Positions 1 through 33,401 of a stretch of 64,000 bases of DNA are shown here, in pieces. This DNA is from an uncultured Acidobacteriota bacterium. GTDB taxonomy: Bacteria > Acidobacteriota > Thermoanaerobaculia > Multivoradales > SZUA-115. The stretch spans positions 1,097,577 to 1,161,576 of the forward strand of contig CAWDVR010000001.1 in assembly GCA_963805975.1 (NCBI GenBank). Direction: 5' to 3'. Both the position numbers and the translations under genes were made by a program. Within the stretch, counting starts at the first letter, position 1, and each line of letters opens with the position of its first letter. Below the pieces are notes generated by a model that was not told the DNA's origin, did no database searches, and saw only the letters and a program-made list of their open reading frames with translations.

Positions 1-1349
1 TCGGGCAGGGCAGTCAGGGTCGCGAGGAGCCGTCGGTAGCGCGCGGCGAGACGCGCCACGGTGGAGGCGTCGAAGAGATCGCGGTCGTAGGCGAAGGCGA
101 GGGTGGCGCTCGCTCCCTGGCCGGCTCCGTGCTCGGCGACGTGGAGCTCGAGGTCGAAGCGGGTGGCGCCCAGGTGGCCGGCCCAGGGGAGAAGCTCGAG
201 GCCGGCGAGCTCCGCCGCCTCGACGGGTGCGCTCTGCAGCGCGAAGATCACCTGGAAGAGAGGGTTGCGCGACAGGTCGCGTTCCAAGCGCAGCTCCTCG
301 ACCAGCTTCTCGAAAGGGAGATCCTGGTGCTCATAGGCGGCAAGCGAGGTGTCGCGCGTGCGGGCGAGAAGCTCGCCCAGCGACGGGTCGCCCGTGAGGT
401 CGCCGGCGAGGACGAGGCTGTTGACGAAGAAACCGATCAGACCTTCGATCTCGCTGCGGCTCCGCCCCGCGACGGGCGTGCCGACCAGGATCGTCTCCTG
501 GCCGGAGAGCGCGCCGAGCACGGCCTGGTACGCTGCAAGGAGGGTCATCGCCAGCGTCGCCCCCTCGCGCCGGGCGAGGGCCCGCAGCTCGGCGACCAGG
601 TCCGCCGCCAGCTCGTAGCTCACCACCCCGCCGCGGAACGCCTGCACGGCCGGCCGCGGCCGGTCGATGGGCAGGCGGAGGGGAGGCGGGTCGGTACCCA
701 AGGTCCCTTTCCAGAAGGCGAGCTCCGCCTGGAGGGTCTCCGGGGAGAGCCAGCCCTGCTGCCAGAGGGCAAAGTCGGCATATTGGACCGGCAGCACCGG
801 CAGGAGCGCCAGCGCCTCCTCCGGGCTGCTCCCTTCCCGCAGAGCGCCGTAGAGCGCGGCGAGCTCGCGGAAGAGGATGCCCCACGACCAGCCGTCCGAG
901 ACGATGTGGTGCTGAGTGAGGAGGAGGACGTGCTCCTCCGGCCCACGGCGCAGCAGGCCGGCTCGCAGCAGGGGGCCGCGACCGAGATCGAAGGGCCGGG
1001 CTGCCTCGCGATCCGCCAGGCGGCGGGCCTCGTGCTCGCGGTCCCGGGTGGCGAGGCGCTGGAGGTCCACCACCGGCAGCGGGCGCCAGCCGGGGGGCTC
1101 GATGCGCTGCACCAGCCGGCCCTGTACGACGCCGAAGGTGGTGCGCAAGGTCTCGTGCCGGCGGCGGAGCGCCGCCAGCGCCTGGGCGAGCGCCGCGATG
1201 CTCAGCGGACCCGCGAGCCCGAGCGCCGAGGGCATGTTGTAGAACGGGTTGTCGGGCACCAGGCGGTCGAGGAACCACAGCCGCTGCTGGGCGAAAGAGA
1301 GCGGCGGCGGCTCGATTCCAGACCGCGGCACCAGCGGCCGCAGGGCGGG
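1..1349 (-). other. NRPS module 11 (partial): C domain, continues beyond the window
   Basis: The C domain shows PPLSFAQQRLWFLDRL at about 1284-1307 and HHIVSDGW at 888-911. Its C-terminal region, ...TRFDLELHV...AYDRDLFDASTVARLAARYRRLL, reaches position 1. No stop codon and no thioesterase are seen. Confidence 0.8.

Positions 1350-33401: not shown

Follow-up and report, generated by a model that had tools for sequence, protein, structure and literature searches.

A probably intact nonribosomal peptide synthetase gene of more than 33 kb in an uncultured Acidobacteriota bacterium, with a proposed model of its assembly line

Does a reading frame of more than 33 kb in the genome of an uncultured Acidobacteriota bacterium encode a single, working nonribosomal peptide synthetase (NRPS), and which peptide would such an enzyme assemble? 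The question is raised by a stretch of 64,000 nucleotides (nt), here referred to as the window (GenBank assembly GCA_963805975.1, contig CAWDVR010000001.1, positions 1,097,577 to 1,161,576), the left half of which had been interpreted in a sequence-only reading, made without database searches, as part of one giant NRPS gene. Our analysis makes it quite probable that the window carries an intact, selectively maintained multimodular type I NRPS gene of an uncultured soil Acidobacteriota bacterium, acting according to the assembly-line model proposed below.

The reading frame and its modules

On the minus strand, the frame runs from position 33464 to position 3 without any stop, corresponding to 11,154 codons, and leaves the window at its left edge. 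As about 162 stops are expected from the base composition of the stretch (log10 of the probability of finding none, about -70), the open frame is not a chance product of the high GC content, which amounts to 73% in the NRPS gene and 70% in the window. The GC content at third codon positions (GC3) lies between 0.79 and 0.94 in 37 of 37 blocks of 300 codons each and that at second positions (GC2) between 0.46 and 0.57; with GC3 high and GC2 low in every block, the coding frame never shifts. The earlier claim of a single frame of more than 33 kb which continues past the window thus stands, and a stop or frameshift between positions 1 and 33401, named at the time as the evidence that would speak against it, did not turn up: no stop was found and the GC3 frame is constant.

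Two ATG codons in the frame, at 33449 and 33401, are candidates for the translational start. An independent contig of 5.5 kb from soil encodes a protein identical to the patatin-like phospholipase whose gene lies directly upstream, and the next start set by the gene caller on this contig is located 64 nt past the patatin gene. As this position corresponds to 33401, translation of the NRPS likely starts there.

3 to 33401, minus strand: type I NRPS open reading frame (ORF), 11,133 codons from the ATG at 33401, at least 1.2 MDa within the window, 3' end past the window

Pfam profiles identify 31 NRPS domains, all of which reside in the same minus-strand frame and in regular order. Condensation (C), adenylation (A) and thiolation, or carrier (T), domains are arranged as C-A-T in modules 1 to 3, C-T in module 4, C-A-T-E with an epimerisation (E) domain in module 5, and C-A-T in modules 6 to 10, followed by a partial C domain of module 11. 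The HHxxxD motifs are spaced at 1042-1087 residues, except at the module lacking an A domain and at the E domain. This motif is present in every C domain and in the E domain, a serine motif in every T domain, and the A domains retain the motifs A3, A5, A7, A8 and A10, with minor variants only in A5 and A7 of two A domains. Hence the collinear repeats of C, A and T domains with HHxxxD, A3 to A10 and GGxS motifs by which a type I multimodular NRPS is recognised are all in place. Ten modules and the C domain of an eleventh bear out the earlier count of at least eleven; likewise, neither a thioesterase (TE) domain nor a stop codon was found in the NRPS frame within the window, as had been noted before, and at least one further module, from C11 onward, is predicted to lie beyond it. 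The modules are as follows, the residues in brackets being those predicted from the specificity codes.

30228 to 33401, minus strand: module 1, C1-A1-T1; C1 divergent, HHLVMDA; A1 DFWSVGLVHK (Thr-like); T1 GGDSI
26997 to 30134, minus strand: module 2; dehydrating-type C2 (28812-30134); A2 DFWNIGLVHK (Thr); T2 GGDSI
23718 to 26909, minus strand: module 3; dehydrating-type C3 (25554-26909); A3 DALWLGGTFK (Val); T3
21924 to 23633, minus strand: module 4, C4-T4 without an A domain (Pfam: Condensation and PP-binding only); C4 of the L-donor type, HHIVSDG; T4 FFDLGGHSL, intact
17313 to 21845, minus strand: module 5, C5-A5-T5-E5; A5 DAWFLGHVVK (Leu); T5 GGDSI; E5 at 17313-18635
14115 to 17216, minus strand: module 6; D-donor-type C6 (15873-17216); A6 DAFWLGGTFK (Val); T6
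10917 to 14051, minus strand: module 7, C7-A7-T7; A7 DAWFLGHVVK (Leu)
7737 to 10853, minus strand: module 8, C8-A8-T8; A8 DFWNIGMVHK (Thr, exact); T8 GGDSI
4575 to 7640, minus strand: module 9; dehydrating-type C9 (6336-7640); A9 DAFWLGGTFK (Val); T9
1374 to 4511, minus strand: module 10, C10-A10-T10; A10 DVYVITQVVK (no substrate assignable)
3 to 1304, minus strand: module 11, C11 only, of the L-donor type; the window edge cuts the Pfam profile at 436 of 456

The codes of ten residues were read after alignment of the nine A domains to the Phe-activating domain of GrsA (GrsA-PheA), whose own code, DAWTIAAICK, was recovered by the alignment and thus served as control. GrsA and known reference codes, including the classical Thr code, served for the readings. 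The code of A8 matches the classical Thr code exactly and that of A1 at seven of ten positions, while A10 shares six of ten positions with the Pro code; compared with solved structures, A10 scored 307 bits to TycB1 (Pro) and 305 bits to McyB1 (Leu), which does not separate the two substrates. In order, the codes read Thr-Thr-Val-[no A domain]-Leu-Val-Leu-Thr-Val-X, in agreement at each position with the backbone previously proposed, down to the one module in which the A domain is missing and the tenth residue to which no substrate can be assigned.

Condensation domains, the internal repeat and gene integrity

By pairwise identity, five groups can be distinguished among the twelve C-type domains. 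C4, C5, C7, C8, C10 and C11 share 51-78% of their residues with each other, and the solved structures closest to C4, the member of this group that was searched, are C domains of the L-donor elongation type. The best solved matches of E5 are the E domains of PvdL, TycA, TycB and GrsA, and those of C6 are D-donor C domains which follow E domains (McyB1, PvdL, BacC, SrfA-C and TycB1). Position 5 is predicted to be D-Leu because a true E domain is followed here by a D-donor-type C domain, which supports the D-Leu of the earlier proposal.

C2, C3 and C9 stand apart as a cluster of their own, with identities of 53-56% among themselves and 29-36% to the remaining domains. Scores amount to 330-387 bits for the C domain in module 2 of McyA (McyA2-C, 8jbr), where identity over the full domain is about 50%, to 210-241 bits for AmbE (7r9x) and to at most 157 bits for any other solved type of C domain; C2 reaches 387, 241 and at most 148 bits, respectively, and C9 reaches 380 and 211 bits for the first two. 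Placed by similarity to solved structures and by pairwise identity, the three domains thus group with the dehydrating (CmodAA) class and closer to it than to the L-donor, D-donor, dual C/E and starter types, and we assign them to this class. Dual C/E domains were considered as well and rejected, as a second N-terminal His motif is missing from the three domains, which match domains of the McyA/AmbE class. Each is located directly downstream of a Thr or Thr-like module (A1, A2 and A8) with a T domain of the GGDSI type.

In AmbE-C2 and the C domains of AlbB, the albopeptide synthetase, CmodAA domains were biochemically shown to dehydrate the T-bound donor residue before condensation, the substrates being Ser or Thr in AlbB and a hydroxylated Glu derivative in AmbE (reviewed in PMC10880069). 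McyA module 2 follows the module which installs the N-methyl-dehydroalanine of microcystin (bioRxiv 10.1101/2023.11.13.566838). C2, C3 and C9 resemble AlbB, AmbE, McyA module 2 and PuwF of the puwainaphycin pathway in carrying HHxxxDG, and are closest to McyA2-C and AmbE; with AlbB, which yields contiguous dehydroalanine (Dha) and dehydrobutyrine (Dhb) (PMC10880069), they share the arrangement of two dehydrating C domains for consecutive residues. They differ from these systems in sequence, identity over the query used being about 50% for McyA2-C and 37% for PuwF, and in being embedded, two of the three at the N-terminal end, in a synthetase of at least eleven modules, with dehydration a prediction. 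As the C domains behind all three Thr modules belong to the dehydrating class, the modified Thr residues proposed earlier can be specified further: those at positions 1, 2 and 8 are most likely Dhb.

A part of the gene occurs twice. Positions 3823-6362 recur, offset by 9540 nt, at 13363-15902 with 24 mismatches over 2,540 nt (99% identity), and the flanks on both sides show the similarity which is ordinary for paralogues.

3823 to 6362, minus strand: repeat copy B, comprising the end of C9, the C-A linker, A9, T9 and the first ~230 residues of C10
13363 to 15902, minus strand: repeat copy A, comprising the end of C6, the C-A linker, A6, T6 and the first ~230 residues of C7

A6 and A9 have the same code and C7 and C10, which are 78% identical overall, have identical N-terminal halves because the repeat of 2.54 kb spans them. 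To judge from its sequence, the repeat appears to have arisen recently through duplication within the gene or through gene conversion, by which positions 6 and 9 would both have become Val. Swaps of A-domain cores are the commonest natural recombination events reported for NRPSs (PMC8097286); the unit repeated here, a natural exchange unit reaching from the C-A linker halfway into the following C domain, has borders unlike those of such swaps (PMC8097286).

Since NRPS modules are repetitive, a repeat of 99% identity is present and the mapping of short contigs from soil runs shows many joints between modules, it might be argued that the frame of 33 kb is an assembly artefact in which modules of several NRPS genes or strains were joined via repeats. 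However, such joints are expected from cross-mapping between paralogous modules, and frame breaks or irregular module spacing occur nowhere. In addition, the donor and acceptor logic is consistent at every junction: the only domains found behind T domains of the GGDSI type are the E domain and dehydrating C domains, the D-donor C domain occurs only after the E domain, and dehydrating C domains occur only after Thr modules. The junction between the patatin gene and the NRPS gene is also found on the independent soil contig, and the patatin protein is recorded on a further contig of more than 1 Mb, possibly the source. We therefore regard an artefact as highly improbable.

The gene is also represented in four public soil runs, whose short contigs match it over its full length at 90-100% identity, and 58 of the 80 best-supported substitutions are located at third codon positions of the NRPS frame (binomial P ~1e-12), an excess which indicates that the frame is under purifying selection in related populations. 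Soil contigs of 1.6-2.5 kb and about 91% identity align without frame-breaking gaps. Most of the insertions and deletions listed (24 of 43) compensate each other in pairs or have lengths divisible by three, and a few, e.g. at 843 and 3661, have no partner; a single-base deletion at 33457 in soil contigs lies upstream of both candidate start codons. That the gene might be a decaying, non-functional relic, as could be suspected from one module without an A domain and from the accessory NRPS genes not seen upstream, is hardly credible in view of no stop in 11,154 codons, intact catalytic motifs, the third-position bias towards related soil populations and the prevalence of frame-preserving changes among the insertions and deletions listed.

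The predicted product, the module without an A domain and chain initiation

If the modules of the intact synthetase act in gene order, the product within the window would read X-Dhb1-Dhb2-Val3-(residue 4)-D-Leu5-Val6-Leu7-Dhb8-Val9-X10-..., where each of the three CmodAA domains would dehydrate the N-acylated Thr bound to the upstream T domain to Dhb and then catalyse condensation. We thus predict a hydrophobic, Dhb-rich peptide of at least eleven residues with three Dhb and one D-residue, which is possibly N-acylated. No compound with this order of residues is described in the literature searched.

The fourth residue depends on a module consisting of C4 and T4, with the active-site His and the carrier Ser both intact. 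A linker of ~40 residues connects the end of C4 to the first helix of T4, with no remnant of an A domain, so that the module represents a C-T unit without an A domain. T4 harbours an insertion of 14 residues, WGFVTGATAGTAGR, rich in Gly, Ala and Thr (22089-22130, minus strand; residues ~3779-3792), in the loop in front of the serine motif, and this insertion is missing from 12 of 12 homologous C-T proteins. Structural modelling of the T4 region by AlphaFold2 gave a mean confidence (pLDDT) of 56, with values of 75-90 for the four-helix carrier fold, and the insertion is predicted to be disordered.

According to the model, T4 would be charged by an A domain outside its own module, which would act in trans or be a neighbouring one. 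C-T units of this composition were found repeatedly in other NRPS proteins, and known modules of this kind are served by a separate A-T protein, such as SyrB1 for SyrE and similarly for ramoplanin and enduracidin (PMC8949500), or, in the case of CmnI, by the A domain of another module, CmnA-A1 (PMC12400406). The unit resembles SyrE module 9 with SyrB1, the ramoplanin and enduracidin systems and CmnI with CmnA-A1 in its composition of C and T domains with catalytic His and carrier Ser, and differs from them in being internal to a giant polypeptide, in having no partner A or A-T protein in the window and in the insertion unique to T4. No stand-alone A or A-T protein was detected in the 30 kb upstream of the NRPS gene within the window. 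This, along with the absence of an A domain and the odd loop of 14 residues missing from the homologues, would also fit a non-functional remnant which is skipped, so that Val3 would be joined directly to D-Leu5. In contrast, the C4 (HHIVSDG) and T4 (FFDLGGHSL) motifs are intact, the AlphaFold2 model retains the carrier fold with disorder limited to the insertion, GC3 and frame match the rest of the gene, and C-T units of this kind recur elsewhere with trans loading as an established route (PMC8949500, PMC12400406). Skipping of C4-T4 is thus unlikely in our view.

Many of the database proteins consist of a C and a T domain, lack an A domain and carry a short conserved tail behind the T domain, EL..LSEEEA... 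(P0131, P0147, P0170, P0193, P0211 and P0216). From its sequence, this tail appears to resemble a C-terminal docking element, and C-T units without an A domain appear to be common at the ends of subunits.

Returning to a functional assembly line, the first residue would require an active N-terminal C domain. C1 (HHLVMDA) is 29-36% identical to the other C-type domains, with values of 33-36% for the six elongation C domains, and identities did not exceed 39% among 1.8 billion representative proteins. It begins ~9 residues past the start codon, which leaves no space for an N-terminal docking domain. As a free N-terminal enamine would be unstable, C1 is proposed to first attach an acyl or peptidyl group to Thr1; dehydration of Thr1 requires prior acylation of its amine, so C1 should be active. 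C1 is divergent, and a role in lipo-initiation goes beyond what its sequence can demonstrate.

Several points weigh against the model. In comparison with solved structures, C1 scores 180 bits to the elongation C domain of Txo2 and 85 and 76 bits to the starter domains RzmA-Cs and CDA-C1, and hence resembles characterised starter C domains less than it does elongation C domains. The stretch that best matches C1 is an internal domain in most of the 150 top-ranking large NRPSs, in a search which ranked proteins by scores summed over many C domains and hence does not isolate nearest neighbours. A1 departs from the canonical Thr code at three of ten positions, the specificity codes are predictions, and A10 is without an assignment. 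The dehydrating function of C2, C3 and C9 is inferred from class membership, and we know of no direct demonstration of dehydration by McyA2-C itself. Genes typical of NRPS clusters, i.e. those for MbtH, a phosphopantetheinyl transferase (PPTase), a transporter, or FAAL, a fatty acyl-AMP ligase, with an acyl carrier protein (ACP), do not occur in the 30 kb upstream. Finally, the gene's 3' part lies beyond the window, as does the rest of the cluster, and with them termination, total length, any loading partner of T4 and any acyl-activating genes.

Some of these points, namely the highest score of C1 to an L-donor elongation C domain, its mostly internal library matches at no more than 39% identity and the absence of FAAL, ACP or acyl-CoA ligase genes upstream, would favour a different arrangement, in which the NRPS is a later subunit and C1 an ordinary elongation domain that accepts its peptidyl chain from a further NRPS encoded outside the window. 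In that case, module 1 would add an internal residue, and Thr1 would be without fatty N-acylation. Such a subunit would have no room for a docking domain before C1, and the identity of 33-36% between C1 and the elongation C domains of the same protein, compared to 51-78% among those domains, fits a specialised initiation domain. Furthermore, starter C domains using acyl-CoA or acyl-ACP of primary metabolism require no dedicated neighbouring genes. We consider the later-subunit arrangement possible, if doubtful; the donor of C1 may be a fatty acyl group or a peptide from another subunit.

Neighbouring genes, relatives and significance

The right half of the window contains the following features in addition to the synthetase gene.

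33465 to 34529, minus strand: patatin-like phospholipase (Pfam PF01734), stop 15-63 nt before the NRPS start, GC ~60%
34900 to 36075, minus strand: Get3/ArsA-family ATPase with an HSP20-like C-terminal domain, between the patatin and radical SAM genes
36930 to 38864, plus strand: radical SAM C-methyltransferase for maturation of peptides made by ribosomes and modified post-translationally (RiPPs), 644 residues (TIGR03975, 516 bits, cut-off 282)
48712 to 51456 and 53696 to 55456, minus strand: three large ORFs of 450, 441 and 586 residues flanking htpG, with strong coding signal
55489 to 64000: polysaccharide biosynthesis set, comprising a deacetylase, a family-2 glycosyltransferase, two NAD-dependent epimerases/dehydratases, a GFO/IDH/MocA oxidoreductase, a methyltransferase and a flippase-like protein

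As the patatin gene ends 15-63 nt before the NRPS gene on the same strand, the two are probably co-transcribed; a scan for promoters and terminators revealed nothing resembling a minus-strand terminator between them. The patatin may belong to the cluster. The Get3/ArsA-family protein has a weaker match to the model of NosAFP-type Get3-fold ATPases (122 bits, cut-off 325). The radical SAM gene resides within a stretch of low GC content (34000-40000, 56-60% compared to 70% for the window). The ORF directly upstream of it (36415-36879, plus strand) matches no family, and no RiPP precursor peptide was identified there; the region may be a small, horizontally acquired RiPP locus adjoining the NRPS gene. 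Further genes upstream of the NRPS gene encode an amino-acid permease, an S8 peptidase and HtpG. The three ORFs flanking htpG match no Pfam family, their sole NCBIfam match being weak (36 bits), and the polysaccharide set is not related to the NRPS. With no accessory NRPS genes on this side, the remaining cluster, if there is any, is to be sought beyond the left edge.

HtpG is 76% identical to its counterpart in a metagenome-assembled genome (MAG) of Acidobacteria, and most of its ~30 best matches are from Acidobacteriota; to Multivoradales MAGs, the identity is only ~62%. The host is comparable to uncultured soil Acidobacteria rich in biosynthetic gene clusters (e.g. Candidatus Angelobacter and the family UBA5704), which possess very large NRPS genes and no characterised product (PMC9723581, PMC12818350). 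In Candidatus Angelobacter, mean GC content is 55% and the largest reported ORF measures 24 kb (PMC9723581), compared to 70% for the window and at least 33.4 kb here. Candidatus Angelobacter was rejected as the host, given the difference in GC content.

Among the matches listed from GTDB representative genomes, JGI metagenomes and a collection of 5.8 billion proteins, no relative exceeds ~56% identity. An exact 50-mer of the window edge has no match in the first two of these; scans of both guided by the C11 protein listed only relatives of 44-56% identity, and a scan of the GTDB representative genomes with the unique linker between C4 and T4 listed no orthologue. In the protein collection, module 10 with C11 reaches at most 51% identity, C2-A2-T2-C3 at most 46% and the C4-T4 junction 34-58%, the highest values over short partial alignments; this search returns proteins of at most 1.75 times the query length, and giant orthologues are invisible to it.

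With regard to size, the sequence-only reading had described single genes of this kind as rare, which is fair, yet larger NRPS genes are known: SelB, the selethramide synthetase of Burkholderia, is encoded by 59.9 kb (18 modules, 2.2 MDa) and the kolossin synthetase of Photorhabdus by a single gene of 49.1 kb (15 modules) (PMC10589681), so that the 33.4 kb visible here are smaller than the record genes. The three synthetases share many collinear C-A-T modules in one gene, an N-terminal C domain and a hydrophobic product rich in Leu and Val; the one described here differs in its origin from Acidobacteriota, its separate E domain, three dehydrating C domains and a module without an A domain, and no closer relation in sequence to the other two than that common to NRPSs was found.

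The synthetases for tolaasin, syringopeptin and corpeptin of Pseudomonas likewise produce long chains rich in Val and Leu with Dhb derived from Thr, and they have an N-terminal C domain and dual C/E domains. The likeness to tolaasin and syringopeptin which had been pointed out before holds as an analogy of composition; host, dual C/E domains and upstream flank do not fit. Here, the host belongs to the Acidobacteriota, GC content is 70%, dual C/E domains are absent, the order of residues differs, Dhb would be formed via C domains of the McyA/AmbE class and the sole D-residue via a canonical E domain. A LuxR-type regulator or efflux genes of the pseudomonad type do not occur in the upstream flank within the window.

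The enzyme is therefore a new example of a well-known kind, as multimodular NRPSs, dehydrating C domains, an E domain with a D-donor C domain and a module without an A domain all have precedents. It might be speculated, and this goes further than the evidence makes likely, that the full gene could be the longest contiguous NRPS gene (>59.9 kb), that, independently, C4-T4 could be loaded in cis from a neighbouring A domain, one A domain thus serving two carriers, and that C2 and C3 could generate an N-terminal acyl-Dhb-Dhb, for which the Dha-Dhb of albopeptide is the sole contiguous precedent described.

Current understanding is not challenged by these findings. The gene provides natural test cases for the action of dehydrating C domains on consecutive residues, for the supply of an internal module without an A domain and, by virtue of the 99% repeat, for the question of where natural recombination cuts a module. 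For natural-product discovery, it also represents a target which appears to be intact, from a phylum of which hardly any metabolites have been characterised, and the predicted peptide lends itself to heterologous expression or to synthesis based on the prediction.

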